Shown here piece by piece: positions 7,579-34,655 of a stretch of 40,123 nucleotides of DNA. Numbering within the stretch: position 1 is the first letter of the stretch; each line of letters starts with the position of its first letter. The translations under genes and the position numbers were made by a program. The notes under the pieces were generated by a model. The model ran no database searches. It was not told the DNA's origin and was given only the letters and a program-made list of their open reading frames with translations. The DNA is from a virus (Duplodnaviria; Heunggongvirae; Uroviricota; Caudoviricetes): the IMG/VR virus record IMGVR_UViG_2537562231_000015, positions 1-40,123 of that record, one strand, 5' to 3'.

Positions 7579-8637
7579 TTACACTCCGGTTTCTGCTGCG
7601 GCGGCGCTGAAGTCACCAATCTGGATGTTTTCCACCAGTGCGGCGCAGCGGTAGTCCTCAACCACATAGGCTTCGTTAACGGATTCAAAATTTTCAATCC
7701 GGTCACGTTTCGGGTTGTCGATAACTGAACGGCGGCGGGTATCTTCCTGCCAGTAGATGGACAGGTTATCCAGACGGGTGATCAGCAGCGCATTCGGCGG
7801 GAAGAACGGCGCACGCACGGCCTGCAGGCCACCCATGCGTTTCTGACTGATGATCATATCGGCTGCCAGTTTTTCACTGTTTTCCTGCTCTTTGTTGACC
7901 AGCGGGAAATACTTGTCAGACAGCAGTTCACGACCGCAAATCACCACCAGATCGTCATCGTCCTGGTAGACCACGTCGATAAGCTCATTGACCGCATCCA
8001 TCACAACAGCGTCCAGGTTGGCATATTCGCCACCTTTCCCGACTTTCACCGCACCCGGTGTGGTTTCGCCGCCCGTGGTGGTGCTGCCCATGACGTGATC
8101 CGGTGCATCCTCACGGATTTTCTGCAGCCAGCCTTTGTTCACATCCTGCAGCAGCGGGTTTTCACTACGGTTGGAGGTTTTCGCACGCTTCACGCCGTTA
8201 AAGCCGATCATGATGCGGTCCAGTGCCTGACGTTTCACGATGGCGTCACGGATACGCACCTGGAAATCCTGAAACTTCGCCCACAGGTCCAGCTTCGCGT
8301 AGGTCAGCACCGTGTCAAAGTTGGTCTGCTCGCATTTGTATTCCACATCGACCATCAGCGTCGGATCGACAGGTTCACGCTCTTTCGCGGTGGTGTCAGT
8401 GGTTCCGGCAATGGTGCTGCCAACACCCAGCCCCAGCAGCTGACCGGACTGCTCAGTCACTGGCGTGACGTTAATCAGCGTCAGGAAAGCGGCGGACTGC
8501 TGGATCTGGTCTTCCAGCGTCTGCTGCACAGACGGCTCTACAGTGAACTTGCTGGACAGTTCTTCAACTGCCACACCGTTCAGACGTGCCAGTTGCTGCA
8601 GGTAAGCGTTAAAAGCAAAGCGGGTATTCTTCTTCAT
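7579..8637 (-). CDS. N: Major capsid protein N
   Basis: 352-aa ORF, size and position of P2 gpN. Confidence 0.85.
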   Translation of the reverse strand: MKKNTRFAFNAYLQQLARLNGVAVEELSSKFTVEPSVQQTLEDQIQQSAAFLTLINVTPVTEQSGQLLGLGVGSTIAGTTDTTAKEREPVDPTLMVDVEYKCEQTNFDTVLTYAKLDLWAKFQDFQVRIRDAIVKRQALDRIMIGFNGVKRAKTSNRSENPLLQDVNKGWLQKIREDAPDHVMGSTTTGGETTPGAVKVGKGGEYANLDAVVMDAVNELIDVVYQDDDDLVVICGRELLSDKYFPLVNKEQENSEKLAADMIISQKRMGGLQAVRAPFFPPNALLITRLDNLSIYWQEDTRRRSVIDNPKRDRIENFESVNEAYVVEDYRCAALVENIQIGDFSAAAAETGV

Positions 8638-9629: not shown

Positions 9630-11396
9630 ATGAACACCACACTGACACCCGCAGATCTCGATCCCCGTCGGCAGGCCATGCTGCTGTACTTTCAGGGATA
9701 CCGCGTAGCCCGCATTGCTGAAATGCTGGGCGAGAAAGTTGCAACCGTTCACAGCTGGAAAAAACGCGACAAGTGGGGTGACTATGGGCCGCTGGATCAG
9801 ATGCAGCTCACCACCGCCGCACGCTACTGCCAGCTCATCATGAAGGAGCACAAAGAAGGGAAAGATTTCAAAGAGATTGACCTGCTGGCGCGCCAGTCTG
9901 AGCGCCACGCGCGGATCGGCAAGTTTAACAATGGCGGCAACGAAGCCGACTTAAACCCTAACGTCGCCAACCGCAACAAAGGCCCGCGTCGTCAGCCGGA
10001 AAAGAACGTTTTCACTGATGAACAGATTGAGAAGCTGGAAGAAATCTTCCATTCCTCCATGTTCAACTACCAGCGCCACTGGTGGGAAGCCGGAAAAACC
10101 AACCGCATCCGCAACCTGCTGAAGTCACGCCAGATCGGCGCGACCTTTTACTTTGCCCGTGAAGCCCTGATTGACGCCCTGCTTACCGGACGTAACCAGA
10201 TTTTCCTTTCTGCCAGTAAGGCACAGGCTCACGTCTTTAAGCAGTACATCATCGACTTCGCCAAAGAAGTCGAGGTGGAGCTGAAAGGCGATCCGATGGT
10301 GCTTCCTAACGGGGCCACGCTTTACTTCCTCGGCACCAATGCCCGCACGGCCCAGAGTTACCACGGCAACCTGTATCTGGATGAATATTTCTGGATACCG
10401 AAATTCCAGGAGCTGCGCAAAGTGGCTTCCGGTATGGCTATTCACAAAAAATGGCGACAAACCTATTTTTCCACGCCATCCAGCCTGACCCACAGTGCTT
10501 ATCCGTTCTGGTCCGGTGCGCTGTTCAACCGTGGGCGCAACAAAGCCGATAAGGTGGACATCGACCTGTCCCACAGCAATCTGGCCCCCGGCCTGCTGTG
10601 CGCAGACGGGCAATACCGCCAGATAGTCACCGTGGAAGATGCGGTGCGCGGCGGCTGTAACCTGTTCGACCTTGACCAGTTGCGCATGGAGTACAGCCCG
10701 GACGAATACCAGAACCTGCTGATGTGCGAGTTTGTGGACGATCTCGCGTCCGTGTTCCCGCTCAGCGAACTGCAGGCGTGCATGGTGGACAGTTGGGAAG
10801 TCTGGACCGACTTTCATGCACTGGCCCTGCGCCCGTTTGGCTGGCGCGAGGTGTGGATCGGTTATGACCCGGCAAAAGGTACGCAGAACGGCGACAGCGC
10901 CGGATGCGTGGTGGTGGCACCGCCAGCCGTGCCGGGCGGTAAGTTCCGCATTCTTGAGCGTCACCAGTGGCGCGGGATGGACTTCCGCGCCCAGGCTGAC
11001 GCCATCAAAAAACTGACTGAACAGTACAACGTGACCTACATCGGCATCGACTCGACAGGTGTCGGCCACGGGGTTTACGAGAACGTGAAAGCGTTTTTTC
11101 CAGCCGTCCGGGAGTTTGTCTACAACCCCAACGTTAAAAACGCCCTGGTACTCAAGGCCTACGACATTATCAGTCACCGCCGTCTGGAGTTTGACGCCGG
11201 GCACACCGACATTGCGCAGTCATTCATGGCAATCCGTCGCGCAACCACCGCCAGTGGCAACCGCCCAACCTATGAAGCCAGCCGCAGCGAAGAAGCCAGC
11301 CACGCCGATCTGGCTTGGGCAACGATGCACGCACTGTTTAACGAACCGCTGCAGGGCGAGTCCGCCAATACCAGCAATATTGTGGAGATTTTTTGA
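9630..11396 (+). CDS. P: Terminase large (ATPase) subunit P
   Basis: 588-aa ORF; N-terminus resembles P2 gpP (RRQAMLLY..QG.RV..IAE); divergent from O. Confidence 0.9.
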   Translation: MNTTLTPADLDPRRQAMLLYFQGYRVARIAEMLGEKVATVHSWKKRDKWGDYGPLDQMQLTTAARYCQLIMKEHKEGKDFKEIDLLARQSERHARIGKFNNGGNEADLNPNVANRNKGPRRQPEKNVFTDEQIEKLEEIFHSSMFNYQRHWWEAGKTNRIRNLLKSRQIGATFYFAREALIDALLTGRNQIFLSASKAQAHVFKQYIIDFAKEVEVELKGDPMVLPNGATLYFLGTNARTAQSYHGNLYLDEYFWIPKFQELRKVASGMAIHKKWRQTYFSTPSSLTHSAYPFWSGALFNRGRNKADKVDIDLSHSNLAPGLLCADGQYRQIVTVEDAVRGGCNLFDLDQLRMEYSPDEYQNLLMCEFVDDLASVFPLSELQACMVDSWEVWTDFHALALRPFGWREVWIGYDPAKGTQNGDSAGCVVVAPPAVPGGKFRILERHQWRGMDFRAQADAIKKLTEQYNVTYIGIDSTGVGHGVYENVKAFFPAVREFVYNPNVKNALVLKAYDIISHRRLEFDAGHTDIAQSFMAIRRATTASGNRPTYEASRSEEASHADLAWATMHALFNEPLQGESANTSNIVEIF

Positions 11397-12430
11397 TGGG
11401 AAAGAGTAAGAAAAACCGCACTGCGGCGACGAATCAGATCCAGCATAAAAACCAGACTACAGCCGAAGCATTCAGCTTCGGCGATCCCGTTCCAGTTCTG
11501 GACCGCCGAGAATTACTGGACTATGTGGAATGCGTACAGATGGACCGTTGGTATGAGCCGCCCGTCAGCTTTGACGGACTGGCGCGCACCTTCCGCGCTG
11601 CCGTGCATCACAGTTCCCCGATTGCAGTAAAGTGCAACATTCTGACCAGTACCTATATCCCTCATCCGCTGCTCAGCCAACAGGCTTTTTCGCGTTTTGT
11701 ACAGGACTATCTGGTATTTGGTAACGCCTATCTGGAGAAACGCACGAACCGCTTCGGTGAAGTTATCGCCCTTGAACCTGCGCTGGCAAAATACACCCGA
11801 CGCGGGTTAGACCTGGATACCTACTGGTTTGTGCAATACGGCATGACCACGCAGCCGTATCAGTTCACGAAAGGCAGCATTTTCCATCTGATGGAACCGG
11901 ACATAAATCAGGAGATCTATGGCCTGCCCGGCTATCTTTCTGCCATTCCGTCAGCCCTGCTCAACGAGTCCGCCACGCTGTTCCGCCGCAAGTATTACAT
12001 TAACGGCAGTCATGCAGGCTTCATCATGTACATGACCGATGCCGCGCAGAACCAGGAGGACGTGAACAACCTTCGCAATGCGATGAAAAGCGCCAAAGGA
12101 CCAGGTAACTTCCGCAATCTGTTTATGTACTCGCCTAATGGTAAAAAAGACGGTCTTCAGATTATCCCGTTGTCAGAAGTCGCAGCGAAGGATGAGTTTC
12201 TGAATATCAAAAACGTGAGCCGTGATGACATGATGGCTGCGCACCGCGTGCCGCCGCAAATGATGGGGATAATGCCTAATAATGTTGGGGGTTTTGGGGA
12301 TGTGGAGAAGGCCGCGAAAGTATTTGTTATGAATGAGTTACTACCAATTCAAAAACATATTCTGCAACTTAATGAATGGGCTAAAAAAAACATCATCTCA
12401 TTCAGTGAATACTCTGTGGAGTGTATGTAA
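11393..12430 (+). CDS. Q: Portal protein Q
   Basis: 345-aa ORF overlapping P stop; P2 gpQ size and position. Confidence 0.9.
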   Translation: MMGKSKKNRTAATNQIQHKNQTTAEAFSFGDPVPVLDRRELLDYVECVQMDRWYEPPVSFDGLARTFRAAVHHSSPIAVKCNILTSTYIPHPLLSQQAFSRFVQDYLVFGNAYLEKRTNRFGEVIALEPALAKYTRRGLDLDTYWFVQYGMTTQPYQFTKGSIFHLMEPDINQEIYGLPGYLSAIPSALLNESATLFRRKYYINGSHAGFIMYMTDAAQNQEDVNNLRNAMKSAKGPGNFRNLFMYSPNGKKDGLQIIPLSEVAAKDEFLNIKNVSRDDMMAAHRVPPQMMGIMPNNVGGFGDVEKAAKVFVMNELLPIQKHILQLNEWAKKNIISFSEYSVECM

Positions 12431-12466: not shown

Positions 12467-14248
12467 TTATATTTTAGCAAACGTTTCTAACGCCAAGCTA
12501 TCTGTTCTTTCTTTTATTAATGAATCATCCCATTTATGTTCTCTTGCTTCTGACTCACTAACAAACTCTGTAACTAATTTTAAATCAGATTTTTTATAAG
12601 ATTCTATTTTTTTGTGCAACTCATAATTCTTGCAATCTTCATTAAGTGAAAAACAGAGTGGTAGTAAATTACCAATCATACCCACGACTGACTCGTTAGT
12701 TTTGCTTTGAGATGATATGTGTTCCAAAGAAACTATATCCATTTTTAACTCTCGCGTCCCTCGTCTGATACGTTCCAACTTGTCAAAAATATAAACAATC
12801 AACTTCCTTTGCCCAGACTTTTTATTTGTATAAACAATATTCTTTGAAAATGCTTGTTTGAATATATTTTCTGAAGGCCCTTTCTGTGTAAAATAATCTA
12901 ATGCGTCATTAATAACACCCTCAACATCTCTTTTATTTAATGCCTTATTCATTCTTACTGCTAATACAGAATATTTTGCATCGATTCCAGATGGTCTTAG
13001 ACGACATACTGCATTAAACTTAAAGTGAAATGACTCTAAGGACTTCAAACATTCTATCAGCATTGATTGTGTAAGGGCTCTCGGTTTCTCTTTACGTTTT
13101 CTAAGTAATGAGAGTACAAATGGTCGAGGAATACTCACATTAAAAATCTCGAATGCTTTTAACGAGTTGTAAATTTCACGCTGATCAGGTTGAGGCCAGT
13201 CATCTGTATTTGGCGCTATTATTTTACAGTATAATTCAACATCATCATATAATTCGTTCAGAAATGATGCTGATGACAATAAAGTATTCTCATCTTGAAT
13301 CTCACGTTTAAAAGCACGATAAAGTTGATCTTCTCCAATATAATTATACTTAGAAAGCCACCACGTTCTAATATAATCAGCAATAGTGCTATTACTATCC
13401 CTAGACTCAATTTGAGTAACGATATAATCCCATTTTGTTTTTGCAATATCTACCGGATATGTTTGAGTGCAAGTTTGGAATACTTTATTCTTTATCAAAT
13501 CAATTGAACTTAAGTTTATCCCTCGAGCATTCAACACTTCAAAAATATCATAAGCATCATCCTCCTTACCTACAGATATTTTTACCAACTTCAAATAATT
13601 GGTAATCATTCTATATACAGCAGTCAAACAAAATATATAATCTTGGTTATTATAATGTTTTGCACCATCTCGCAACAATGCAGAACAGAGTGATTTCCTC
13701 CCTAGTTTTCTAGAAAGAAAAATTCCTGCATAACTTATACGTACATCCTCTTCACAAGATTCATCAACTTGATGCTCTTCGCGATCTTGATATTTTAACT
13801 TAAAATATGTTCTATCGCTATTTTTTGCTAATTTTTCAATAAATGTCTCACCATTTGAGGCTAATTGGCTTCTGCTAAATGTAGGACTCACAGTAACGAT
13901 ATATGTTTTAAATATATCATCCGCTAATGAATCTTGCCCTAAGGAACGCAATTTACGCGATATTAATGAAAGCAATATAGTAATAACTGAAAATCGTTGT
14001 TGTCCATCAACCACTTCTAATACATCATCACTATCTGCTCCAGAAAGAACAATAGTCCCTATAAAATATTCTGAACACTCCAAGTTCTGTCCATCTTCAT
14101 TCAACCTTATGTTTCTGACAATATCTTGCCATAATTCTTCAAGCTGAAGCTTTTCCCAACTAAACTCACGTTGATTACGTGGAATAACATATCTTTGTTT
14201 TACAGATAGAATGTTTTTTATATTTAGTGGTGTTGCATCAAAATTCAT
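12467..14248 (-). CDS. GmrSD-family (DUF262/ParB-like N-terminal, DUF1524-like C-terminal) putative modification-dependent nuclease
   Basis: 593-aa ORF; N-terminal YVIPRNQREFSW and VVDGQQR motifs typical of DUF262; C-terminal LEHI...GNLLPL resembles the DUF1524 His-Me finger; markedly AT-rich versus flanking phage genes. Confidence 0.65.
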   Translation of the reverse strand: MNFDATPLNIKNILSVKQRYVIPRNQREFSWEKLQLEELWQDIVRNIRLNEDGQNLECSEYFIGTIVLSGADSDDVLEVVDGQQRFSVITILLSLISRKLRSLGQDSLADDIFKTYIVTVSPTFSRSQLASNGETFIEKLAKNSDRTYFKLKYQDREEHQVDESCEEDVRISYAGIFLSRKLGRKSLCSALLRDGAKHYNNQDYIFCLTAVYRMITNYLKLVKISVGKEDDAYDIFEVLNARGINLSSIDLIKNKVFQTCTQTYPVDIAKTKWDYIVTQIESRDSNSTIADYIRTWWLSKYNYIGEDQLYRAFKREIQDENTLLSSASFLNELYDDVELYCKIIAPNTDDWPQPDQREIYNSLKAFEIFNVSIPRPFVLSLLRKRKEKPRALTQSMLIECLKSLESFHFKFNAVCRLRPSGIDAKYSVLAVRMNKALNKRDVEGVINDALDYFTQKGPSENIFKQAFSKNIVYTNKKSGQRKLIVYIFDKLERIRRGTRELKMDIVSLEHISSQSKTNESVVGMIGNLLPLCFSLNEDCKNYELHKKIESYKKSDLKLVTEFVSESEAREHKWDDSLIKERTDSLALETFAKI

Positions 14249-14368
14249 AACTTATCCTCAGAGACAACAAATTGATAATAATGTCCTATTCAAATGGCTA
14301 ATGATATGACATAAAAAAAGAAAAATGCAATGTACTACAAGAATATCAGTAAACGTTTCTAGCGCGCG

Positions 14369-14387
14369 CTCGTATCCCCGCCACGCC
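14369..14387 (-). other. cos site of the P2/186-like prophage (19-nt cohesive-end sequence)
   Basis: Minus strand reads GGCGTGGCGGGGATACGAG flanked by AAAGCGGGC and CGCGCGC, homologous to P2 cos GGCGAGGCGGGGAAAGCAC and oriented toward Q. Confidence 0.6.
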
Positions 14388-14432
14388 TGCCCGCTTTATG
14401 TAGTGGTTTTCATGCAGGTGCATGATCTACGC

Positions 14433-14458
14433 AAAAGCCCGCCAGTTCCGGCGGGCTT
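14433..14458 (-). terminator. Putative intrinsic terminator
   Basis: AAGCCCGCC/GGCGGGCTT 9-bp stem; on the minus strand followed by TTTTG. Confidence 0.4.
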
Positions 14459-14727
14459 CAGCTAAAACGATCCTCAAACGATCATGCGGATTCATGCGGC
14501 ATAGACATGCACCTGTGCGCCTTTAATCAAACATGGAATAATTATTTGTTCAGCGGGAGTAGCAATATAGCGGCGGCTATTGGTTTAGAAGGGCTTATGA
14601 TGACTGTTTTTGGTTAGAGTTTGAACGCCCAACATCGCCGGGCGGTGGTATTACTACATCATGGCAATGAGAAGGGGTGAACCCTTTGCCAGTTTGTCCG
14701 ACGATGATATCCATCCAGAGTAAGCGT

Positions 14728-16174: not shown

Positions 16175-18589
16175 TTAATACAGGTTCCGCCACTTATCAT
16201 CTTCCCGCAAACGCTGGTTCCGATAGAAGATACGCAAGCCTGCTCCTGACGGAATACTGCCACCGCGAAGGAGCAAATCGACTTCTTTCTCGCTGCCATC
16301 AAATCCTCTGGACTTCAGTTCATAGACGAGCTGCTGATGCTGATGATCTGTAATTCGCTGTTTGTAGTCTTTACGCCGTTTCGGTTTCACCAAGCGCAAC
16401 CTTGCTGCCAGCTCCCGGCGATCTTTTTTGCTCATACTGTGCAGGTAATCGTGCAATTCCTTGTCATCCATGCGGGTAATGTCCGTTCTGGAGCCCCCAT
16501 CAGCTGATTTGTCTTTCCCTTGTTGGTACAAATTTTCAGCAAGGGGACAGTTATTGCCACGAGTCCAAGGGGCGCAAGCGCCCTGGTCGGCTGCCGCCTC
16601 CTGAACGTCAACGGCTTTACGAACCATTTTCCACTTCACTGCATGAGTGCAGATCTTGCCCTCTGCAATGGGTGACCAGATGCCATAAATACGAATACCG
16701 TGATCGCCATAGGCGGTCGGCTCTTCGTTAATTTCATAAGCAGTTCTGATGAGGTGATATTTACGGGGAACCAGTACACCTCCCTGCTTCATGATATAGG
16801 TGGCAAAACAACCAGCATCAGCAGCAGCCAGAATGGCATCAAGGCGCGGGTTATCCAGTACCGGCACACCTGCTTTTTTGTCACCCTGCTGCCTTGCCGC
16901 CTGACCAGCCAGCAATCGCAGTTCACGGTAAGCCTGACGCCCCGGAATGCCAAAGAAGCGGAATTGCTGAACACGATGCAAAGACGCCCAGGCATTCACG
17001 TATTCAGCATTATCACGCAGAGATTTACCCGTTTCCTTGCTGATCTCGCCAGCCAGACCACGCCCGTCAATGTTCTTGCTGATATATTTCGCGATGTAGC
17101 TTGTCGGCGTTCCTTTGCGCGGGTTAATCAACTCAGACTTAAAGCGTGGTCCCGTGTTATTCCCCAGCTCCTCGCGGTCTTCACGAATGGCAAACTTACG
17201 CAACAAAGCAGTAATGGCGCGGCGATCTTTTTTGCGCATAAAACACAACAGGTGCCAGTGAACTGTACCGTCATGATGCGGCTCAGCCACCCGCACGCCA
17301 TACCAGCGCAATCCGGCTTTGTGCATAGCCTTACGAAATGCAGCAAACATGCCGACCAGATAATCGCTGCTTTGTCTTACTGTCGCGTTGGTCCAGGTCG
17401 GGTTTGGCCTGCCGTTATTTAGCGTGGAATGGAAACGTGACGGACAGGTGATGGTGTAGAAAACGGCGCAGTCACCACGCATTTCCGCGATAAGCTCCAG
17501 ACCTTTAACGCAGGCCATCATCTCATTGCGGCGATGCGCCGGGTTGCTGCTGCTGGCGTTTACCACATCCTCCATGTCCAGCATGTCGCCGTCTTCGTTC
17601 ACCAGTTCATGAGAACGGAAAAACTCCAGCGACTTACGGCGCTGCTCACGTTTATGCATCACGGCTTCATAGCTGACATAGGGAGATGCTTTTTTGCTGA
17701 CCAGACAGACAGCACGCAACTGCTCTTCCCGCCATTCGCAACGCATCTTCCATAATTTCCGATACCACCAGTCGGCGCACAGCATACGCGCCAGCGAACC
17801 CGGAATGAGTTCATAGGGCACAGGTTTGCGGCGGTTTCTTTTCCGGCGGAGTTGCTCAAACGCAGGCGGTATGACATCCAGTCGCAGGGTTTCTGCTGCC
17901 ACCTTTTCCCATGTCTTGCGGATTTCTTCCGGCTTAACATCATCGGAGGCGTACAAATCACCACAAGCGGCATCAAGACACATGCTCATATGCGCAGCGA
18001 CAAGGGTGGACAGGCGTTTCACCTGATCCTGACTCATTTCAGGCAGGATCAGCAGACCGTCCAGCCCTTCATGGCTTGCCATAAAACGAAAAGATGCAGA
18101 TAGCTGGCTGTCGCGTACATGCTCCAGTCGTTCCAGGCATGGCTTAATCGTCTCACGCAAATAGCGGGAATAAGCCTTTGGCCTGCCCAGGTTGCTGAAG
18201 TATTTAATACGTTGCATCAGCGGCTTGCTGATATGGGAAGGCTGGGCGTTGACATCCGCCAGAATGACCATATCCGGATTAAAACGCTGCTGCTCATGCG
18301 CCAGCTTTGCCCGGCTAATTAGCTTATCCTGCTCCATTTCGCGCTGGACAGGATCACGGGATTCATTAAAGAAATAACGCTCCCAGACCTGATCACTCAG
18401 TGCCTCGCGGCGCAGTTGTTCCTGCTCGTTATCGGCAGCGTACAGAGTGATCAGGTTTGAAAGCGCAGAAACCGGCGCAACTTCCGCCGGGTCCAGATAA
18501 GGGTTAATGGCCTTTTTCGGGCTGTTCCATGAGAATGCTGCGGCAGCCTCGTTAAAGCCGCAGCAGTTGTTCATATCGGCATGACTCAT
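16175..18589 (-). CDS. A: Replication initiation protein A (rolling-circle nicking endonuclease)
   Basis: 804-aa ORF; contains [19 protein letters not shown] and [12 protein letters not shown] matching conserved P2 gpA motifs. Confidence 0.9.
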
Positions 18590-21384: not shown

Positions 21385-22017
21385 ATGATACAGGTAAAGG
21401 TTGGAGAGAATACAGGGGGAAGAGAGGCTATCCATAGACTAATGGCAGCCTATGATTTCAAGTCCAGACAGCAACTTTGCGATCACTTAGGCGCATCAAA
21501 AAGCACCATGGCAAACAGATACTTAAGAGATAGTTTTCCTGCAGAGTGGGTGATTCAGTGCGCCTTGGAAACAGGAGTTTCTTTACTGTGGCTAACCACC
21601 GGACAGGGGGAGCCAGGTCCAAACATTGAACCTAAAAAAAATATCAATTCCGTGAACTCCAGCAAGGTTGTACCTCTTTCTGAACTAGTATCTCCTGAAA
21701 TTGACAAGGCGACTCTCAACGGTGGTTTATTGGTCGATGCTGGAAAAGCAATCATTGATAGCAGCATACTCCCCTCAGACTCAAGCAACCTACTGCTGGT
21801 GACTACTTCTGGTGATTCTTATTTAATAGATCGCAACCAAACACCACCAGTAAATGGTATGTGGTTAGTCGATATCGACGGGATAAAAAGCATCGTTAAA
21901 TTGACTCGACTCCCGGGAAACAAATTAGTAGTGCATCAGGATGATTCATCGTTTGAGTGCGGTCTGGATGACATTGAGGTAGTAGGCCGCGCACTGAAAA
22001 TCATTAAGAGCCTTTGA
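21385..22017 (+). CDS. cI: CI-like immunity repressor
   Basis: 210-aa ORF with N-terminal HTH-like segment; followed immediately by int as in 186. Confidence 0.7.
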   Translation: MIQVKVGENTGGREAIHRLMAAYDFKSRQQLCDHLGASKSTMANRYLRDSFPAEWVIQCALETGVSLLWLTTGQGEPGPNIEPKKNINSVNSSKVVPLSELVSPEIDKATLNGGLLVDAGKAIIDSSILPSDSSNLLLVTTSGDSYLIDRNQTPPVNGMWLVDIDGIKSIVKLTRLPGNKLVVHQDDSSFECGLDDIEVVGRALKIIKSL

Positions 22018-22018
22018 T

Positions 22019-23050
22019 ATGACCATCAGAAAACAGCCGAACGGAAAATGGTTGTGTGAGTGCTATCCCAATGGACGCAATGGCAAGCGCGTGCGTAAGC
22101 AATTTGCCACGAAAGGCGAAGCCATTGCGTTTGAAAGCTTCACAATGGAAGAAGTGAATAAAAAACCGTGGTTGGGTGAAAAGGATGATCGGCGACGCCT
22201 ATCAGAATTAATTGAGCTTTGGTATTCCCTGTATGGTCAGACACTCGCAGACCCCAAGCGCCTCATGGCGAAACTTAGAATTATCTGTAATGGTCTAGGC
22301 GACCCCATCGCCTCTGAGCTGACAGCCGGAGACTTTACGAAATACCGCGAAGCACGGTTAAAAGGTGAAATACGAAATGAAGATGGCACGCTTATGTCGC
22401 CCGTTAAGCCCCGCACGGTAAACCTTGAACAGCGCAATCTATCATCGGTGTTCGGTACATTAAAAAAACTAGGACACTGGTCAGCACCAAACCCGCTGGC
22501 AGGACTTCCGACCTTCAAAATTGCCGAAGGTGAGCTGGCTTTTCTTTCCACGGACGAAATCAAGCGCCTGTTGGCGGCATGTGCTGAATCTCAAAGCCCT
22601 AGCTTACTAATGATTGCAAAAATATGCCTAGCTACTGGCGCACGGTGGAGTGAAGCAGAAAATCTGCAGGGCCATCAGTTATCCAAATACCGCATCACTT
22701 ATACCAAGACGAAGGGCAAGAAAAACCGTACCGTGCCAATATCTCAGGATCTTTACAACGAACTCCCTAAAAACAGAGGAAGGCTATTCACCCCATGCAG
22801 AAAAGCCTTTGAACGGGCAGTAAAACGAGCTGGTATTGAACTGCCAGAGGGACAATGCACCCACGTTCTACGCCATACATTCGCCAGCCATTTCATGATG
22901 AACGGCGGAAACATACTGGTACTGCGCGATATTTTGGGCCATGCCGATATAAAAATGACGATGATTTACGCCCATTTTTCTCCAGACCATCTGGAAGATG
23001 CAGTAACGAAAAACCCTTTGAACTTTATATACTTGTCGAATAACATGTAA
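22019..23050 (+). CDS. int: Tyrosine integrase (P2/186 type)
   Basis: 343-aa ORF; C-terminal HVLRHTFASHFMMNGG...LGHADIKMTMIYAHF catalytic motifs. Confidence 0.9.
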   Translation: MTIRKQPNGKWLCECYPNGRNGKRVRKQFATKGEAIAFESFTMEEVNKKPWLGEKDDRRRLSELIELWYSLYGQTLADPKRLMAKLRIICNGLGDPIASELTAGDFTKYREARLKGEIRNEDGTLMSPVKPRTVNLEQRNLSSVFGTLKKLGHWSAPNPLAGLPTFKIAEGELAFLSTDEIKRLLAACAESQSPSLLMIAKICLATGARWSEAENLQGHQLSKYRITYTKTKGKKNRTVPISQDLYNELPKNRGRLFTPCRKAFERAVKRAGIELPEGQCTHVLRHTFASHFMMNGGNILVLRDILGHADIKMTMIYAHFSPDHLEDAVTKNPLNFIYLSNNM

Positions 23051-23072: not shown

Positions 23073-24086
23073 GTGATCTTAATCTTAAATATGAAACCTA
23101 ATTTAATTTCACGTAAACAGTACCAACACCTCAAAAATGAGTTAAATAGACTTGAGAGCTTACCATATAGACGAGGAAACAACCCAACCAACCTCAGAAT
23201 ATTAAAACTAAGAGAAGATCTAACAAACTCTCTTGTTGAATCCAGAAAAAGAAATTCAAAAAAAATTAATAGAGGAAATGTTAGCTGTATAATATGCAAG
23301 AAAAATTTCAAAAGTGCTCATGGCCTATATGAGCACTATCGCGCCAAGCATAGCAATATGATTGAACACCCTACCTCATTGTTTAATAAAGAAATAAATG
23401 GCAATACAACACTGCTTGAAAGCATTTCGCATCCTGTCACAAAAGGTATACCAATAGCAGAACACGATAAAAAAATATCATCCATTACGCTAAACAGGGA
23501 AACTAAATATTTCAATGTAGATGCGTATAATCTGGCATGCCTTTCATTAACAAAAAGTGAAGCAATAAAAATCGCTAAAGATGAATTATTATCAAGGCAG
23601 TTTCTTGGACAAAAAAACATTCTAGAACCTACTCTACCGCCAGTCATATTTATAAATCCCTCTGATACAATTAGTATACCAGTTGTCACAAAAGGCAATA
23701 CTCATCTGCAAACAATATTACAGCGTGACTCTGGCGAACAGGTTGACTTTAAAAAAAGGGTTCTAAAAAACTTCTCAAATGTATGCGCAATAACAGGTTA
23801 CAACCTCCCAGTATTGCAGGCATGTCACCTTGAACCATTTTCTCAGACCCAAAACCATAGAACCAACAATGGAATACCTCTTGAACCTACCCTTCATGCC
23901 TTGCTTGACCGAGGTCTACTAGCCATACATCCAGATAATTTAACTATTCATTTTGCTATCGATTGCTATTACAAAAATATATATGAAGGAAAAAACATCA
24001 AACCTCATAAGATTGATTTAGATAAAAATTCACTGCTAATAATTTGGAAGAACTTTCTTTTGAATGTTAAAAACAGCCAACCGTAA
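23073..24086 (+). CDS. Zinc-finger plus HNH-like nuclease domain protein (cargo gene)
   Basis: 337-aa AT-rich ORF; C2H2-like CIICKKNF..HGLYEHYRAKH near N-terminus; C-terminal CAITGYN...QACHLEPF...NGIPL...HALLDRGLLAI resembles HNH (HNH_2-like) fold. Confidence 0.55.
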   Translation: MILILNMKPNLISRKQYQHLKNELNRLESLPYRRGNNPTNLRILKLREDLTNSLVESRKRNSKKINRGNVSCIICKKNFKSAHGLYEHYRAKHSNMIEHPTSLFNKEINGNTTLLESISHPVTKGIPIAEHDKKISSITLNRETKYFNVDAYNLACLSLTKSEAIKIAKDELLSRQFLGQKNILEPTLPPVIFINPSDTISIPVVTKGNTHLQTILQRDSGEQVDFKKRVLKNFSNVCAITGYNLPVLQACHLEPFSQTQNHRTNNGIPLEPTLHALLDRGLLAIHPDNLTIHFAIDCYYKNIYEGKNIKPHKIDLDKNSLLIIWKNFLLNVKNSQP

Positions 24087-24213
24087 GTTAGCCTAAAATT
24101 GGCGACAACTTGGCGGCAGAGCATTAAAAATGCGTAAAACGGATAAACACAGGATAATAGTAACACACTGTTTTTGAACGCAAACTACTGTTTTCATTGT
24201 ATTAAAAATAGTA

Positions 24214-24258
24214 TGTAGGAATTTCGGACGCGGGTTCAACTCCCGCCAGCTCCACCAC
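24214..24258 (+). ncRNA. ssrA: 3'-terminal fragment of tmRNA gene ssrA (T-arm and acceptor 3' strand ending CCA); attachment-site core
   Basis: ATGTAGGAATTTCGGACGCGGGTTCAACTCCCGCCAGCTCCACCA matches the E. coli ssrA 3' end from memory; upstream sequence is unrelated AT-rich DNA, so only the 3' portion is present. Confidence 0.75.
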
Positions 24259-24367: not shown

Positions 24368-24417
24368 TATTGGTATACGTTTAGGTATACGGTAGGATGT
24401 ATACCTAAACGCGTATA
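24368..24417. repeat. Integrase arm-type repeats (GGTATACG family), attL side of the P4-like element
   Basis: ATTGGTATACGTTTAGGTATACG plus inverted GTATACCTAAACGCGTATACC; near-identical 23-mer recurs at 38313-38336. Confidence 0.45.
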
Positions 24418-25051
24418 CCAATTCATGAAGGAGCGGCCAAATTGGCAAGAACGACACGCCCCCTGACCAACACAGAAGTACTGCGCGCTAAAGCGTTAGA
24501 AAAGGATCTAACGTTGCATGATGGCGATGGTCTTTTTCTACTCGTTAAAACGAACGGTAAGAAGTTATGGCGTTTCCGTTATCAACGTCCGGCAACAAAG
24601 CAACGGACAATGATGGGGCTAGGAGCCTTCCCAGCCCTTTCACTTGCTGACGCCCGACGCTTAAGAGCGGATTACCTTTCCTTGTTAGCCAACGGAATTG
24701 ACCCGCAAATTCAAGCTGAAATTGCAGAGGAACAGCAGCAAATCGCACAGGACAGTATTTTCTCGACGGTCGCCGCTAATTGGTTTCAGCTCAAAAGCAA
24801 AAGTGTTACCCCTGATTATGCAAAAGATATTTGGCGCTCATTGGAAAAAGATGTATTCCCCGCCGTTGGTGAGATGCCCGTTCAGCAGATCAAAGCTAGA
24901 ACATTGGTCGAAGCACTTGAGCCAGTCAAAGCTCGTGGGGCATTAGAGACTGTACGTCGTCTGGTGCAACGCATTAACGAAATAATGATTTATGCGGTTA
25001 ACACTGGCTTGATTGATGCAAACCCAGCATCAGGTGGGTAATGACTCCAAC

Positions 25052-25555
25052 TTATTGATAGTGTTTTATGTTCAGATAATGCCCGATGACTTTGTCATGC
25101 AGCTCCACCGATTTTGAGAACGACAGCGACTTCCGTCCCAGCCGTGCCAGGTGCTGCCTCAGATTCAGGTTATGCCGCTCAATTCGCTGCGTATATCGCT
25201 TGCTGATTACGTGCAGCTTTCCCTTCAGGCGGGATTCATACAGCGGCCAGCCATCCGTCATCCATATCACCACGTCAAAGGGTGACAGCAGGCTCATAAG
25301 ACGCCCCAGCGTCGCCATAGTGCGTTCACCGAATACGTGCGCAACAACCGTCTTCCGGAGCCTGTCATACGCGTAAAACAGCCAGCGCTGGCGCGATTTA
25401 GCACCGACATAGCCCCACTGTTCGTCCATTTCCGCGCAGACGATGACGTCACTGCCCGGCTGTATGCGCGAGGTTACCGACTGCGGCCTGAGTTTTTTAA
25501 ATGGCGGAAAATCGTGTTGAGGCCAACGCCCATAATGCGGGCGGTTGCCCGGCAT
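25052..25555 (-). CDS. insB: IS1 InsB
   Basis: 167-aa ORF matching IS1 InsB. Confidence 0.9.
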
Positions 25556-25749
25556 CCAACGCCATTCATGGCCATATCAATGATTTTCTGGTGCGTACCG
25601 GGTTGAGAAGCGGTGTAAGTGAACTGCAGTTGCCATGTTTTACGGCAGTGAGAGCAGAGATAGCGCTGATGTCCGGCGGTGCTTTTGCCGTTACGCACCA
25701 CCCCGTCAGTAGCTGAACAGGAGGGACAGCTGATAGAAACAGAAGCCAC
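25474..25749 (-). CDS. insA: IS1 InsA
   Basis: 91-aa [26 protein letters not shown]... matching IS1 InsA. Confidence 0.9.
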
Positions 25750-26411
25750 TGGAGCACCTCAAAAACACCATCATACACTAAATCAGTAAGTTGGCAGCAT
25801 CACCCATCAGGTGTTGGCATGGCCTTCGAAAAGCCAAAAAAACAAAACATGCCGACGCTTCGACCTGAAGAATTACCAAAGCTGATGCGTTCTTTAGTCA
25901 TGTCAAATCTGTCTATCCCGACTCGCTGTCTAATTGAATGGCAACTCCTGACTCTTGTGCGCCCTTCTGAAGCCTCCAGTACTCGGTGGGAAGAAATCGA
26001 TCTTCATGCAAAGCTCTGGACGATTCCTGCCGAACGGATGAAGGCTAAACGGGAACACATAATTCCTCTATCATCTCAGGCATTAGAGATTCTTAATGTG
26101 ATGAAGCCTATTAGTGCTCATCGTGAATATGTTTTTCCGAGTCGGAATGACCCAAAGAAACCAATGAACAGTCAGACTGCAAATGCAGCTTTAAAACGTA
26201 TTGGTTTTGGCGGAAAATTAGTTGCCCATGGATTACGTTCAATAGCAAGTACAGCCATGAATGAAGCTGGATTAAATCCTGATGTTATCGAGTCTGCCTT
26301 AGCCCACAGTGATAAAAATGAAGTTAGAAAAGCATACAATCGTTCTACTTATCTCGTGCAGCGAATTGAATTGATGGATTGGTGGGGAGAATACGTTAAA
26401 AATAAAAGGGG

Positions 26412-28121
26412 TTAGCCCCCCTTTTTTCTATACAATCTCAAGCACTCGTCCAATTCAATAAGTTGTGAATTACTTAATCGTTCTTTTATATAATAAAATA
26501 CATCTTTTACTGAAGCAATTTCTCTCATCGCTCTATTGCCCATTAAAACATAGTCTTGATACATTCCAATTCTGAAGAATGAATTTGCTGCGCAAGCCAA
26601 CATAATTACTTCGGTCATTGCAGGGAGATTTAAACGATTTGGCTTAAATTTATTTTTATCATATTCGTTAAAACAAGACAAAAAGTTTCTCAATGTTTTT
26701 ATATCAGCAATACCATTTGAAACATTAGTAAATGATTTATATAAATATGGAGAGCATGAATACCAATATATATCACAAACAAGTATAGAACTTCGCTTGT
26801 TCGCAAACTCAAGCCATTCACCCTTATTTCCATTATGCATTAAGTTATATAAGAAATAAAAATGCAACAACCCATTTTTATATTCTTTTTTGGATTGATC
26901 ATAGATTATCTCAATTTTGTCCATGATAGACTGCAAATCAGTGACTTCGCCTAAATTTAACATATTTAGGTATTCACTAAACCACTTCGCTATACTTTTA
27001 GCTGTAAATCCGTCTGCATTCCAGAGCCAATATTGTGCAGATATCTCTGCAACCATTACACCCGATGTTTCCATCACCCAATTAACAGACTCTCTTTTTT
27101 GACTGTAGTTTTTACGGCAAAAATTTATTATCACATGGCGAAGAAGTCGAAGCAATCCAGAGTAACTGAAGTGAGGTTCGCCAAAAAGAACCAGACAATC
27201 ACCAACAGGATTGTAGGCTTTCGAGATCATTGCATCAAGTGGCTTAAGCTCATGGACAAAAGAAGACCTGATTTTGTATAAATTATCTAAAGCTCTACTA
27301 AGGAAGCTATAGCGGATTGGATATCTCTCTGTTTCATTGAAATAATTTTCTTCAAGATTTTTCAGTATAAAATCTTTGAACCTTTTTTGTAATCTGAATT
27401 GTTTGCCTTCAATAAGTATTGATTTAATTTTACAAACATCCTCACCAGGCATATGCTCAAATACAGACTCTAATTCACCTCTGGTTTTTTGATCGTAGTC
27501 ATCCCAATCAGACTTATAGTTATCATTTCTTTGAGACAAAGACTCCAAGGCATAGACTAACATGGAATAAGTCAGGTCAAAGTTGGTTGACAATGATTCT
27601 TTTGAATCACTAATTATTTTTAACGCTGCCATTAAAGATTTAAAGGCAGATCTATTTAGATTCACTACATCTTTAATAAAAGCAGAAAACCCAGAGACAT
27701 CATCAAATGAAACTCTTCGATTAATCTCCACTAAATATGGGGCAACTTCAAGCGCAATTTTTGAGTGATGTTTATTAAAATTTGATAATGCACATATTTT
27801 TTTAACCGATTCTTTTTCTACTCTAGCCACACAATCAAAATAGAATTCCCATAATAAAATAAATTGTTGCCTATAATCCTCATCACCAGCCCTAACTACG
27901 ACTCCAGCTTCAATTCGTTCTGGTTTTTCGGTCAGGAGAGTATAGTTTACCACATAACAGTTTATACCATCATGACTTATTTTATTTGCTTTAAAAAGAG
28001 GGGAGGTGTTTTCCACCGAGAAAGACACATCAACATTTGAATAAAAAACAAATGTGCCATCGTGTTTTTCTATTTTATCTAAATCAAAGAACACTCCAGC
28101 TGATATCTGAAACATACTCAT
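26412..28121 (-). CDS. Hypothetical 569-aa protein in the P4 int-cos variable slot (candidate anti-phage defence)
   Basis: Long AT-rich ORF with no recognised family; contains an R-x4-H motif (RSSFVH); sits where P4 carries gop/beta/cII. Confidence 0.6.
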   Translation of the reverse strand: MSMFQISAGVFFDLDKIEKHDGTFVFYSNVDVSFSVENTSPLFKANKISHDGINCYVVNYTLLTEKPERIEAGVVVRAGDEDYRQQFILLWEFYFDCVARVEKESVKKICALSNFNKHHSKIALEVAPYLVEINRRVSFDDVSGFSAFIKDVVNLNRSAFKSLMAALKIISDSKESLSTNFDLTYSMLVYALESLSQRNDNYKSDWDDYDQKTRGELESVFEHMPGEDVCKIKSILIEGKQFRLQKRFKDFILKNLEENYFNETERYPIRYSFLSRALDNLYKIRSSFVHELKPLDAMISKAYNPVGDCLVLFGEPHFSYSGLLRLLRHVIINFCRKNYSQKRESVNWVMETSGVMVAEISAQYWLWNADGFTAKSIAKWFSEYLNMLNLGEVTDLQSIMDKIEIIYDQSKKEYKNGLLHFYFLYNLMHNGNKGEWLEFANKRSSILVCDIYWYSCSPYLYKSFTNVSNGIADIKTLRNFLSCFNEYDKNKFKPNRLNLPAMTEVIMLACAANSFFRIGMYQDYVLMGNRAMREIASVKDVFYYIKERLSNSQLIELDECLRLYRKKGG

Positions 28122-28412: not shown

Positions 28413-28431
28413 GTGCTTTCCCCGCCTCGCC
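28413..28431 (-). other. cos site of the P4-like satellite (identical to P2 19-nt cohesive end)
   Basis: Minus strand reads GGCGAGGCGGGGAAAGCAC exactly, within AAAGCGGGCGGGCGAGGCGGGGAAAGCACTGCGCGC. Confidence 0.8.
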
Positions 28432-28595: not shown

Positions 28596-29168
28596 TTACA
28601 CAGACTGACGTGATGCCAGTTGCGCACTTTTACGCGAAAAAATCATGTTCTGCGCAGGGGTGAATTTTTCACGGCTGTCATCCACCGAAGCCGCGTCAGG
28701 CCTGAATCCGATGGTCGTTAAAATGTCGCTATCCTGTGCGGAATAATTAATTTTTTCACCCTTCGCAAGCCAGGACAGGAGGGCTTCACGCAGGGCATCT
28801 GTGGCACGCTGTATGGCACAGTTTCGGGCAATGGCCGTCAGATCACTGTAGCCCATCAGCTCCGGTGCCAGTGCCGCCGCCAGTGCTGTGCCGTGCTGCT
28901 GCATAAAATCATTCAGCCGGTCGCGGATGCTGATGTGCTGAACGGCTTCATGCGAACGAATATAACGACCGGCGGCCTGATTCACCTGCCATTTTCTGAC
29001 TTCGATAATATTGCGTAATTCGTCCAGGCGACTGACGTTTCTGCCTTCTCCTGACAGAAGCCGCAGATATTCCTGTTCGGCCGCAGCCAGCTCATTTTTG
29101 CGTTGCAGCCATGCTGCTTTGTTATTCTGACAGGTGTCAAAGGCCTGCTGTAAGGCTGTGCTTTCCAT
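28596..29168 (-). CDS. psu: Psu (polarity suppression / capsid decoration) protein
   Basis: 190-aa ORF, same length as P4 Psu, in the sid-delta-psu-cos arrangement. Confidence 0.85.
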   Translation of the reverse strand: MESTALQQAFDTCQNNKAAWLQRKNELAAAEQEYLRLLSGEGRNVSRLDELRNIIEVRKWQVNQAAGRYIRSHEAVQHISIRDRLNDFMQQHGTALAAALAPELMGYSDLTAIARNCAIQRATDALREALLSWLAKGEKINYSAQDSDILTTIGFRPDAASVDDSREKFTPAQNMIFSRKSAQLASRQSV

Positions 29169-29241: not shown

Positions 29242-29742
29242 TCATTCCAGACGCAGCGAATATGATTGTGTTTTTAACCGTACTGGCGGCAGTTCCTGTT
29301 TTTCATGCAGGCGTTCTGCCAGTTCGTCCGGCGTGACCGGGCGGACAATGAAGCGGGTGATGGTCTGAAGCGTTTTAAACACCAGACCACAGCCCGGATC
29401 CGTGCACACATAAAAACGCTCGGTGACTTCCTGAGACAGACGCCGCGATGTTCTTGACAGTGCAAGGCCTTTACATCTCCGACAACAATATCCGGTAACA
29501 AGCATTCTTTTCGGGCGTTTCATACTGCCGGAGGCCGACGTCAGTGAATCGCGGTATCTCTGTTTGCCTGAAATGTATTCCATTCCTGAATCTTTACTGT
29601 CAGAGAAAAAGCTTTCACTCGCTTCAAATGTCGCAGAGCAATAAATATTCCGGCACTGTGCAATCATTATCTTGGTGCCATCGTCCATGAAATGTGCGCG
29701 ACGGGTGTGAGCAACATGTCCACACGACGGGCAGTAAATCAT
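29242..29742 (-). CDS. delta: Delta late-gene transactivator (tandem Ogr-like zinc finger)
   Basis: 166-aa ORF starting MIYCPSCGH with C-x2-C...C-x4-C pattern, a second Cys cluster further on; same length as P4 Delta. Confidence 0.85.
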   Translation of the reverse strand: MIYCPSCGHVAHTRRAHFMDDGTKIMIAQCRNIYCSATFEASESFFSDSKDSGMEYISGKQRYRDSLTSASGSMKRPKRMLVTGYCCRRCKGLALSRTSRRLSQEVTERFYVCTDPGCGLVFKTLQTITRFIVRPVTPDELAERLHEKQELPPVRLKTQSYSLRLE

Positions 29743-30473
29743 GACAGCAGTCCTCTGGCCTTAAGCTCTGCTCCCTGCTGGTCTATTTTGTCCTGCCACA
29801 CCTTGCGCTGTGCCGGTGTGCCTGCCACCTCATAATCCATGTGCGGGAGTGTTGCCGCTGACAGTCCGGTCAGCCGGAGAACCGGCTCGCCGGTGAGGCT
29901 GATTTGCATCTGTTTAATTTTCTGTTCCAGCGATGATTTCACCTGCTGCATGACAGCCTTTTCCGGTGCGACGTAGCCCTGATGGCCGGTGGTGTTGGCG
30001 AGCGGATTTTCCTGTACCAGGATACTCAGATGCATTGCCCGGACAAGCGCCTCACAGGTTTCATTCAGGGCGTGTTCCAGCTCATGCTCTGCATACAGAC
30101 TCAGAAGGTGATGATGTGCCTTCCGGTAGGCGGTGGCCGTGCTGTCACACGCCCCTTTCAGGCGTTCACGTTCAAAATTCAGCACCACGGCCAGATTGTC
30201 ATATTCCTGTACCAGCTCCCGGCGTGCCACGCGCTCAATGTGGCGCTGTTTCAGCTCGTCGCTCAGGACACCACCGGCTGCACGAAAGGCTGTGCGCCAG
30301 TCATCAGCGTCATTTCCGTCGGCCTGCGCCAGCGCATTTTTTTCCTGCTCTGCCCGTTCAATGGCCTTGACGGTCTCATCCATCAGTCGGGCGTTCTCAA
30401 GATGAGCGGCTCTGGCCTTTTCCAGTTGTGCCAGTGCGGGTTGCAGATATTCAGGGATGGTGTTGTCAGACAT
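29739..30473 (-). CDS. sid: Sid capsid size-determination protein
   Basis: ORF 29739..30491 trimmed to MSDNTIPEYLQ (244 aa, P4 Sid length); overlaps delta start. Confidence 0.85.
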   Translation of the reverse strand: MSDNTIPEYLQPALAQLEKARAAHLENARLMDETVKAIERAEQEKNALAQADGNDADDWRTAFRAAGGVLSDELKQRHIERVARRELVQEYDNLAVVLNFERERLKGACDSTATAYRKAHHHLLSLYAEHELEHALNETCEALVRAMHLSILVQENPLANTTGHQGYVAPEKAVMQQVKSSLEQKIKQMQISLTGEPVLRLTGLSAATLPHMDYEVAGTPAQRKVWQDKIDQQGAELKARGLLS

Positions 30474-30516
30474 TTTCCGGCTCCTCGTCACTTCAGATTA
30501 AGAAAATTGTGACGTA

Positions 30517-31843: not shown

Positions 31844-32100
31844 TAAAAAAGCCCCTCAGACCGTCTCAGCACGTCATGACGCCCGTGAACACCTCAGCAT
31901 TGAGGCTTACCATAAGCTCAACCGCGCCAGCGCCGTATCCCAGTTTGTTGGGGGTGATTTGATTCACCGTGAACTCTCCGGCCTGCATCAGCTCTACATT
32001 CCGCATATTTTCAGCGTAAGCGTAAACTGACCGCCGTATGTAGCCATCAGACGAGAATTGGTAACTTAGACGCCCATCTGATATAGACGGACATCTAAGT

Positions 32101-32526
32101 ATGGAATTACAGGACTGGCGAAAAGAACCTCGTAAAAACTATTCGAATGAATTCAAACTTCGTATGGTGGAACTGGCATCACAACCTGGAGCTTGTGTTG
32201 CACAGATTGCACGTGAAAATGGCGTCAATGATAATGTTATTTTCAAATGGCTCAGGCTCTGGCAGAACGAAGGGCGTGTTTCGCGGCGTCTTCCGGTAAC
32301 GACCTCTTCTGACACTGGCGTTGAATTATTACCTGTAGAAATAACGCCGGATGAGCAGAAAGAACCTGTGGCGGCCATTGCGCCGTCTTTATCCACTTCC
32401 ACTCAGACCAGAGTCAGTGCCAGTTCCTGCAAGGTGGAATTCCGTCACGGTAACATGACGCTGGAAAATCCATCGCCAGAGCTGCTCACAGTGTTGATCC
32501 GTGAACTGACCGGGAGGGGAAGATGA
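32101..32526 (+). CDS. IS66-family accessory protein (orf1/TnpA)
   Basis: 141-aa ORF, first gene of the IS66 three-gene array. Confidence 0.8.
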   Translation: MELQDWRKEPRKNYSNEFKLRMVELASQPGACVAQIARENGVNDNVIFKWLRLWQNEGRVSRRLPVTTSSDTGVELLPVEITPDEQKEPVAAIAPSLSTSTQTRVSASSCKVEFRHGNMTLENPSPELLTVLIRELTGRGR

Positions 32527-32873
32527 TCTCACTCCCATCAGGTACCCGTATCTGGCTCGTTGCCGGCGTTACCGATATGCGTAAATCCTTCAACGGACTG
32601 GGAGAACAGGTACAACATGTGCTGAATGATAATCCCTTCTCCGGTCACCTGTTTATCTTCCGTGGCCGACGGGGTGACACCGTCAAAATTCTTTGGGCTG
32701 ATGCTGATGGTCTGTGCCTGTTCACCAAACGCCTGGAGGAAGGCCAGTTTATCTGGCCTGCGGTACGTGACGGCAAGGTATCCATTACCCGCTCGCAACT
32801 GGCAATGCTCCTCGATAAGCTGGACTGGCGTCAGCCAAAAACATCCAGCCGTAACTCACTGACAATGTTGTAA
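32523..32873 (+). CDS. IS66-family Orf2 (TnpB)
   Basis: 116-aa ORF overlapping orf1 stop; conserved IS66 orf2 size. Confidence 0.85.
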   Translation: MISLPSGTRIWLVAGVTDMRKSFNGLGEQVQHVLNDNPFSGHLFIFRGRRGDTVKILWADADGLCLFTKRLEEGQFIWPAVRDGKVSITRSQLAMLLDKLDWRQPKTSSRNSLTML

Positions 32874-32903
32874 AAAACTCCTGACCGCATTATAAAAACG
32901 GTC

Positions 32904-34517: not shown

Positions 34518-34655
34518 GCGTCAATACGGTGCTCCGTTGACGCTTACTTTTCAGCTACCTGAATGAAGATATTGATTTTGTGCTGAATGAGCTGAAAGCC
34601 AAAGGCCTGTGCCGCGATTTTCTCGCCCAGCAGAAAGACCGGGGAGACAGGACGC

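Follow-up and report, generated by a model that had tools for sequence, protein, structure and literature searches.

Sequence comparison identifies the 19 nucleotides GGCGTGGCGGGGATACGAG at 14369-14387 as the genuine cohesive-end site (cos) of a P2-family prophage that resembles Fels-2. This sequence has a single exact match in the window, the term used here for the whole 40,123-nucleotide stretch of DNA analysed. The first-pass annotation had stated that this 19-mer differs at five of 19 positions from the P2-type 19-mer of a neighbouring satellite, GGCGAGGCGGGGAAAGCAC, and had suggested that, if terminase specificity follows these differences, the resident prophage may not be the helper to which the satellite is adapted. 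The five differences were confirmed at positions 5 (A in the satellite, T in the prophage), 14 (A, T), 16 (G, C), 17 (C, G) and 19 (C, G) and, judged by the survey of cos sites presented below, they mark a distinct cos family and do not stem from damage to, or drift of, this particular copy. Taking the evidence as a whole, we favour with moderate confidence a reading in which a Fels-2-family cos co-varies with the terminase clade, and in which the P4-proper satellite that neighbours the prophage at ssrA would not be adapted to this prophage.

The cohesive-end site of the prophage

The prophage occupies bases 1 to about 23,050 of the window (Table 1) and shares approximately 96% identity with Escherichia phage Cartapus and with Klebsiella Kp48xx prophages, relatives that belong to the Peduoviridae, genus Elveevirus, near Fels-2. 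Each visible gene of the prophage is full length, with 94-100% identity to its counterpart in Cartapus. The order of genes around cos is portal gene, hotspot gene, cos and gpA. The hotspot gene encodes a GmrSD-type nuclease in a region with a G+C content of 0.33-0.38, and its location agrees with the cos-proximal hotspot described in PMC9122126; the position of the HNH-nuclease-like gene, between integrase and att site, is also a described hotspot (PMC13586616).

Table 1. Features of the prophage, the satellite and their junction (positions in the window)
Feature	Position	Strand	Basis
Small terminase subunit TerS (gpM homologue), Fels-2 clade, 216 aa	6925..7575	-	Pfam Phage_term_smal
Capsid (gpN)	7579..8637	-	
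Large terminase subunit TerL (gpP homologue), Fels-2 clade	9630..11396	+	100% identical to Cartapus
Portal protein (gpQ homologue)	11393..12430	+	
GmrSD-type (HEC-06) nuclease, defence cargo in cos-proximal hotspot, low G+C	12467..14248	-	Pfam GmrSD_N, GmrSD_C; PADLOC HEC-06
Prophage cos core, nick flanks and tgcatgaaaacc...aaagcgggca block	14360..14426	-	Conserved in phage and satellite alignment
Putative 19-nt cohesive-end sequence of prophage, Fels-2 type (GGCGTGGCGGGGATACGAG)	14369..14387	-	Exact match; same in named phages
GC-rich hairpin followed by T run, terminator-like, between distal GCATG motifs and cos core	14433..14459	-	Sequence read; function inferred
Distal GCATG motifs, candidate terminase-binding elements	14483..14510	-	Computed positions; binding role inferred
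Replication endonuclease gpA of prophage	16175..18589	-	Pfam Phage_GPA; 98% identical to Cartapus
186-type CI repressor	21385..22017	+	Pfam Phage_CI_repr, Phage_CI_C
Prophage integrase	22019..23050	+	Pfam Int_N, Phage_integrase
HNH-nuclease-like cargo gene between prophage integrase and att site	23073..24086	+	Pfam HNH_2; PADLOC HNH
ssrA (tmRNA) 3' remnant at the prophage-satellite junction, att site	24168..24257	+	Rfam tmRNA
Satellite integrase interrupted by IS1 (25035-25804), with N-terminal part at 24442-25041 and catalytic part at 25819-26415	24442..26415	+	
Satellite hotspot cargo, 569 aa, function without assignment, G+C 0.34	26412..28121	-	Weak PADLOC ApeA-like match
Satellite cos 19-mer, P2/P4 type (GGCGAGGCGGGGAAAGCAC)	28413..28431	-	Exact match; P4 homology from 28432
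Satellite psu	28596..29168	-	98% identical to P4
Satellite delta	29242..29742	-	98% identical to P4
Satellite sid	29739..30491	-	98% identical to P4
IS66-family element in P4 epsilon, upstream of alpha	32016..34547	+	Pfam HTH_Tnp_1, TnpB_IS66, DDE_Tnp_IS66
Satellite alpha primase-helicase, ORF intact, 777 aa	35582..37915	+	98% identical to P4

Comparison with P2, 186 and related phages assigned the prophage 19-mer to the Fels-2/SEN8/Cartapus type and the satellite 19-mer to that of P2. The same 19 nucleotides are present in Fels-2, SEN8, Cartapus, phage ST437-OXA245phi4.1 and a Gegevirus, and Klebsiella phage 4LV2017 is one base away. In the group formed by Fels-2, SEN8 and Cartapus (Felsduovirus/Elveevirus, Peduoviridae) the flanks are also near-identical, the position is the same and the terminase belongs to the clade of the prophage enzyme (TerL 99.7-100% identical), so that nothing material differs except the adjoining cargo gene, which is of the GmrSD type here. 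The SEN8 record begins exactly at the 19-mer and has its bases 1 to 19 annotated as 'putative cos site', and the Cartapus record has cos annotated at 1 to 59, with the 19-mer inside. The prophage cos is an already described site, the ordinary cos of these phages, and it is not novel. In addition, a scan of IMG/VR revealed the exact 19-mer in at least 120 viral contigs; among those listed, it was invariably located between the portal/terminase genes and gpA, and none of these copies adjoined psu, sid, delta or alpha.

The resemblance between the two 19-mers (14 of 19 positions) was dropped as stand-alone evidence for a cos site, since three sites with no more than five mismatches from the P2 19-mer were found in the window and composition-preserving shuffles gave 1.4 on average, which places such a similarity at chance level. 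This fact, together with the 'putative' status of the ends of the Fels-2 clade in database records, would fit a site that does not function as cos and either arose by chance or survives as a relic of a defective prophage, but we regard this explanation as highly improbable. It is the context of the 19-mer, and not the 14/19 match, that stands out. When a 67-bp core was defined as the 19-mer plus its flanks, from -40 to +8 beyond the 19-mer, the prophage core matched the P4 core at 48 of 67 positions, with the next-best segment anywhere in the window reaching 32 of 67. The earlier identification of both sites as cos proved correct. The sequences that flank the 19-mer, aaagcgggc[a/g] on the left and [c/t]gcgcgc on the right, align without gaps between the prophage site and the cos of the satellite and the P2 family. 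In a gap-free alignment with P2, P4, 186 and SEN8, the prophage cos keeps the overhang start GGCG.GGCGGGG and the flanks gcgggc. and.gcgcgc.

The strongest argument for a real prophage cos is provided, in terms of sequence comparison, by unrelated satellites that share just this block with the prophage: in the satellite of E. coli LR-45 and in that of IMG/VR contig L377, the sole DNA homology to the prophage is the segment 14360-14426, with 97% and 91% identity, respectively, over 65-67 bp. The relation of P2 to P4 is of the same kind, with cos as the sole homology between phage and satellite (PMC9122126). A chance match or relic is also at odds with the canonical position of the site, with the recurrence of the same 19-mer in the contigs and named phages listed above, and with the full-length state of the visible prophage genes and their identity to those of Cartapus, whose virions contain genomes protected from DNase (PMC9928086).

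Upstream of the core, the distal GCATG motifs of the prophage are placed at -123, -110 and -100 from the left nick, and the spacing is identical upstream of the P4 cos. Alignments revealed that these motifs are conserved across phages and satellites of both cos families, and that the hairpin has an equivalent position in Fels-2-like phages, satellites and P4. Since the hairpin and the motifs are common to phages and satellites of both families, the functional cos site of the prophage probably spans about 14360-14510.

Two cos families and their packaging genes

The survey pooled approximately 480 non-redundant cos sites, which were classed by the marker genes nearest to them. The sites were retrieved from IMG/VR by scanning with three 19-mers, a degenerate pattern and Psu, and six GTDB loci were added. 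The survey consists mainly of IMG/VR contigs, which were sampled by cos pattern or Psu and not at random, and three of the scans yielded at least 120 matches each. Two families were distinguished by the end of the overhang. In the GCA family, which includes P2, 186, P4, pro483 and ENT90, the overhang ends in A[A/G/T]AGCA[C/T] and is followed by T; in the CGA family, formed by the Fels-2 group, it ends in [A/C/G]TACGAG and is followed by C. The prophage overhang end, ATACGAG followed by c, fits the CGA-family pattern (.TACGA. and then C). The differences between families cluster at the right-hand nick, where four of five bases differ (GCAC/T in the GCA family vs CGAG/C in the CGA family, with the slash at the nick).

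The cos family followed the clade of the terminase and portal genes in all 126 informative loci listed, including gpA recombinants. Among the loci listed, a CGA-type cos was present in 97 of 97 with a Fels-2-clade TerL, and a GCA-type cos in 32 of 32 with a TerL of the P2/186 clade. Seven of the phages listed combine packaging genes of the P2/186 clade with a gpA closer to that of the window than to that of P2 (83-84% identical to the window's gpA in the listed examples), and these have a GCA-type cos; conversely, 21 listed phages with Fels-2-clade packaging genes and a different gpA have a CGA-type cos. The pairing of cos and packaging genes holds despite the fast-changing hotspot between cos and the portal gene, a rapidly exchanging region described in PMC9122126. 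Nevertheless, simple linkage could account for the association of cos with terminase clade.

The terminase that would act on the prophage cos is itself divergent from that of P2. The prophage TerS is 94.9% identical to that of SEN8, 48.8% to P2 gpM and 49.1% to 186 R, and the corresponding values for TerL are 99.7% (SEN8), 64.1% (P2) and 63.2% (186); for reference, P2 and 186 are 70.2% identical in TerS and 88.5% in TerL. Furthermore, both P2 gpM and 186 R have a basic C-terminal tail of about 30 residues, with an AT-hook-like KRGRP motif, and the Fels-2-clade TerS of the prophage is devoid of this tail.

According to Ziermann and Calendar (1990), as cited in PMC9122126, the cohesive ends of P2 and P4 are 19-nt 5' ends. 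As in the prophage, the P2/P4 cos has a 19-nt frame starting at GGCG.GGCGGGG, the flanks gcgggc. on the left and.gcgcgc on the right, and, upstream, the tgcat.aaaac block, the hairpin and the GCATG motifs. On the other hand, the prophage differs from the P2/P4 cos in five of the 19 overhang bases, in the base after the right nick and in a block at about -20 to -10 (actacat in the prophage vs gccccgc in P2/P4), with 47-48 of 67 core positions identical. The gap to the P4 core, 48/67 for the prophage as opposed to 56/67 for either P2 or 186, is a matter of degree. The cos of 186, GGCGTGGCGGGGAAAGCAT, resembles that of the prophage in the T at position 5 and the 'a' before the left nick, and 186 also shares with the prophage a CI-type repressor and SOS-type regulation. 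Unlike the prophage, 186 keeps a GCA-type right half with T as the next base and encodes a terminase of the P2 clade; the 186 and prophage sites are identical at 15 of 19 positions in the 19-mer and 53 of 67 in the core.

These comparisons bear on an alternative in which the two families are the product of neutral lineage divergence, the Fels-2-clade terminase uses the elements that both share and cuts P2-type cos with sufficient efficiency, and Fels-2-like prophages help P4-proper satellites. We consider this alternative somewhat unlikely. The nick flanks GCGGGC and GCGCGC, the tgcat..aaaac block and the spacing of the GCATG motifs are common to both families, so recognition could be shared, and the cores of P2 and 186 (52/67) are as unlike as those of 186 and the prophage. 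Both P2 and 186 serve P4 as helper phages. Neutral divergence is less easily reconciled with a pairing of cos family and packaging clade that is without exception among the 126 loci listed, with the changes at the right-hand nick, and with a prophage TerS that is 49% identical to that of P2 and lacks the basic tail.

Packaging specificity in lambda resides in cosB and in TerS-binding repeats, and not in the overhang; in this respect the visible differences between the prophage and P2-type cos, which lie in and beside the overhang, are unlike the determinants of lambda. The lambda-like phages lambda, 21 and N15 form packaging groups in which terminase and cis site co-vary (PMC4669245), and they offer an analogy for the possible behaviour of the P2 family.

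Satellite cos families and the helper question

The satellite 19-mer has one exact match in the window and agrees at every position with the cohesive end of P2 (record L130). It is located 14,044 bp from its prophage counterpart, both 19-mers being on the minus strand, and the adjoining segment 28432-38260 is 98% identical to P4. Prophage and satellite are adjacent because both integrated at ssrA, and not on account of a functional pairing; ssrA is the integration site of Fels-2 and SopE-phi (PMC3448106). The same tandem of prophage and satellite recurs in other E. coli genomes, and in E. coli strain 2020N21-246 it has the same pair of cos sequences.

Analysis of the satellites in the survey revealed a marked partition by cos family. 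All GCA-family satellites among the sites listed were of the P4/Psu type (150 of 150), and a CGA-type cos was found in none of the P4-proper satellites listed (0 of 150), despite frequent co-residence. The variant GGCGTGGCGGGGAGAGCAT was present in 81 of the GCA-family satellites listed and in 16-18 listed phages of the P2/186 clade. The exact ATACGAG type was found in 107 phages and in no satellite among the sites listed. A sequence one base from the prophage 19-mer (C for A at position 13), GGCGTGGCGGGGCTACGAG, was found with the prophage-type flank in 10-12 listed satellites of a divergent P4-like lineage, which includes L377 and that of E. coli LR-45, and also in about 99 listed phages with a TerL 82-95% identical to that of the window.

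The LR-45/L377-type satellites, which are absent from this window, have the gene order of P4 (int, hotspot, cos, sid/psu-like, delta, alpA, ash, DUF5375, alpha) and, unlike P4, a Sid-like protein without significant match to P4 Sid. In L377 and in the LR-45 satellite (L531; NZ_AP027532, about 795,000-807,200), this is a Sid/Psu-like protein of 270 aa, with a sequence unrelated to that of P4 Sid. The LR-45 satellite is located at a tRNA-Ser gene and has DRT3 in its hotspot.

We propose that the prophage cos would be cut by the terminase encoded by the prophage itself (TerS and TerL in Table 1), that satellites would carry the cos family of the helper clade they exploit, and that the Fels-2-clade terminase may discriminate against a P2-type cos, in which case the prophage would not be the adapted helper of this satellite. 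The suggestion of the first-pass annotation on this point was thus partially sustained. It gained from the agreement between cos family and terminase clade (126 of 126 loci listed), from the confinement of the CGA-type cos to the other P4-like lineage, and from a terminase further from that of P2 than the 186 enzyme is (TerS 49% vs 70%, TerL 64% vs 88.5%); it was weakened by the nick flanks and GCATG layout that both families share and by the equally modest similarity of the P2 and 186 cores. Because its cos family differs from the P2 type of the satellite, the prophage is probably not the natural helper, a conclusion to which we give a degree of confidence a little above even. Full-text searches of the literature, on help given to P4 by Fels-2 and on variation in cos, returned no relevant report either way.

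Prevalence data were obtained from 5,426 complete E. coli genomes. A Fels-2-clade TerL was detected in 1,177 of them (22%), a P2-clade TerL in 1,595, the P4 psu-cos block in 1,039 and the satellite lineage with a Fels-2-family cos in only eight. The abundance of Fels-2-clade prophages and the rarity of satellites with their cos type leave room for P4-proper satellites to use those prophages, as neutral divergence would have it, and the repeated finding of P4-type satellites in tandem with Fels-2-like prophages points the same way. However, under neutral divergence the lack of CGA-type cos in the co-resident P4-proper satellites listed would not be expected, nor would the acquisition by a dedicated satellite lineage of exactly the Fels-2-family core.

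A mismatch between the satellite and this prophage might also reside outside cos, in repressor type, late-gene transactivation or the fit between Sid and the capsid, with the cos difference being incidental. Pfam analysis indicated that the prophage repressor is of the 186 CI type and not of the P2 C type, the C type being needed only for derepression by P4, and the P4 epsilon protein acts on the P2 C repressor. Moreover, the prophage capsid protein gpN is about 60% identical to that of P2, and the Sid-like protein of the satellites with a Fels-2-family cos, as noted above, does not match P4 Sid. Even so, phage 186, with its CI-type repressor and with 75.5% capsid identity to P2, is a helper of P4. 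A mismatch outside cos is compatible with cos specificity and not exclusive of it, and it leaves the Fels-2-family core of the alternative satellite lineage unexplained. We judge it unlikely that such a mismatch is the explanation and retain cos specificity as the preferred reading.

In the P2/P4 hotspot literature examined, including PMC9122126, 'the' cos is treated as a single shared signal, and a helper range set by cos seems not to be addressed there. The sequences compared raise the possibility that a satellite of the P2/P4 system is restricted in its helpers by cos family; the prophage cos site as such is routine. A broader proposal, which we put forward tentatively and rate somewhat below even, is that enterobacterial P2-family phages form at least two packaging groups defined by GCA or CGA cos and terminase clade, that P4-proper satellites pirate only the P2/186 group, and that Fels-2-like prophages are largely immune to them and parasitised instead by a rare P4-like lineage with a captured Fels-2-family cos. 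If this were true, the helper that a satellite can use could be predicted from its cos type, as read in the sequence. Were cos type to restrict the range of helpers, pairs of helper and satellite would be predictable from genome sequence alone. This would help to explain the spread of P4-like satellites and their defence systems in E. coli, Klebsiella and Salmonella, and would also explain how a satellite can adjoin a P2-family prophage that does not mobilise it.

Some contigs of the survey showed unusual arrangements. The 13.5-kb IMG/VR contig L035, which is of satellite size, was considered as a satellite with a Fels-2-type cos and rejected, since a lambdoid-type early region, not P4-like, lies beside its cos; it may be a hybrid phage with P2-type packaging. 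Its cos (1475-1493) adjoins genes for an integrase, RecE/RecT, a CII-like protein, DnaD/DnaC-like loaders and a ParB-like protein. Satellite contig L207 contains two P2-type cos 19-mers, at 4741 and 5075 (334 bp apart), L076 contains two Fels-2-type 19-mers in opposite orientation (3447-3465 and 6704-6722), and the satellite in L406 has two copies of sid.

State of the satellite and other features of the locus

The satellite in the window retains the psu-delta-sid module, the alpha primase gene and cos, with intact ORFs, but it is disabled by the insertion of IS1 in int and of an IS66-family element in epsilon. The IS1 element, 99.4% identical to the IS1 of phage P1, separates the arm-binding and central domains of the integrase (Pfam Arm-DNA-bind_3 and Phage_int_M, on the first ORF) from the catalytic domain (Phage_integrase, on the second). 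An intact 397-aa homologue of this integrase is encoded in L212, from a related E. coli genome. The IS66-family insertion is bordered by an 8-bp target duplication that corresponds to P4 positions 7996-8003 in the mapping of P4 onto the window, within epsilon (P4 7888-8175), and it interrupts the left operon (cI, epsilon, orf151, alpha). With the integrase lost and an IS in the replication operon, the helper question is largely moot at this locus. Likewise, a failure of prophage induction to package this satellite would be uninformative, because the two insertions cripple it. Other IS elements (IS1203 and ISEc12) are present in the same satellite operon in L212.

The ssrA remnant at the junction was recognised by Rfam with an E-value of 3e-12, below the gathering score since the match is partial. 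A search for tRNA genes in the whole window with ARAGORN returned none, and the ssrA remnant was likewise not called. Three low-G+C cargo genes occupy known hotspots of the locus (12467-14248, 23073-24086 and 26412-28121). The GmrSD/HEC-06 nuclease is type IV restriction-like; the 569-aa protein of the satellite hotspot gave no match in the Pfam search and only the weak ApeA-like match in PADLOC.

Paired 11-mers, ATTGGTATACG and TTAGGTATACG, are located near both satellite ends, at 24369-24391 and 38324-38346, with an inverted copy at about 24400-24425; these are likely candidates for arm-type binding sites of the integrase or AlpA. To the right of the satellite, the flank at 38578-40085 appears degraded, with an autotransporter beta-domain fragment (38578-39288) and a truncated IS66-family transposase (39384-40085).
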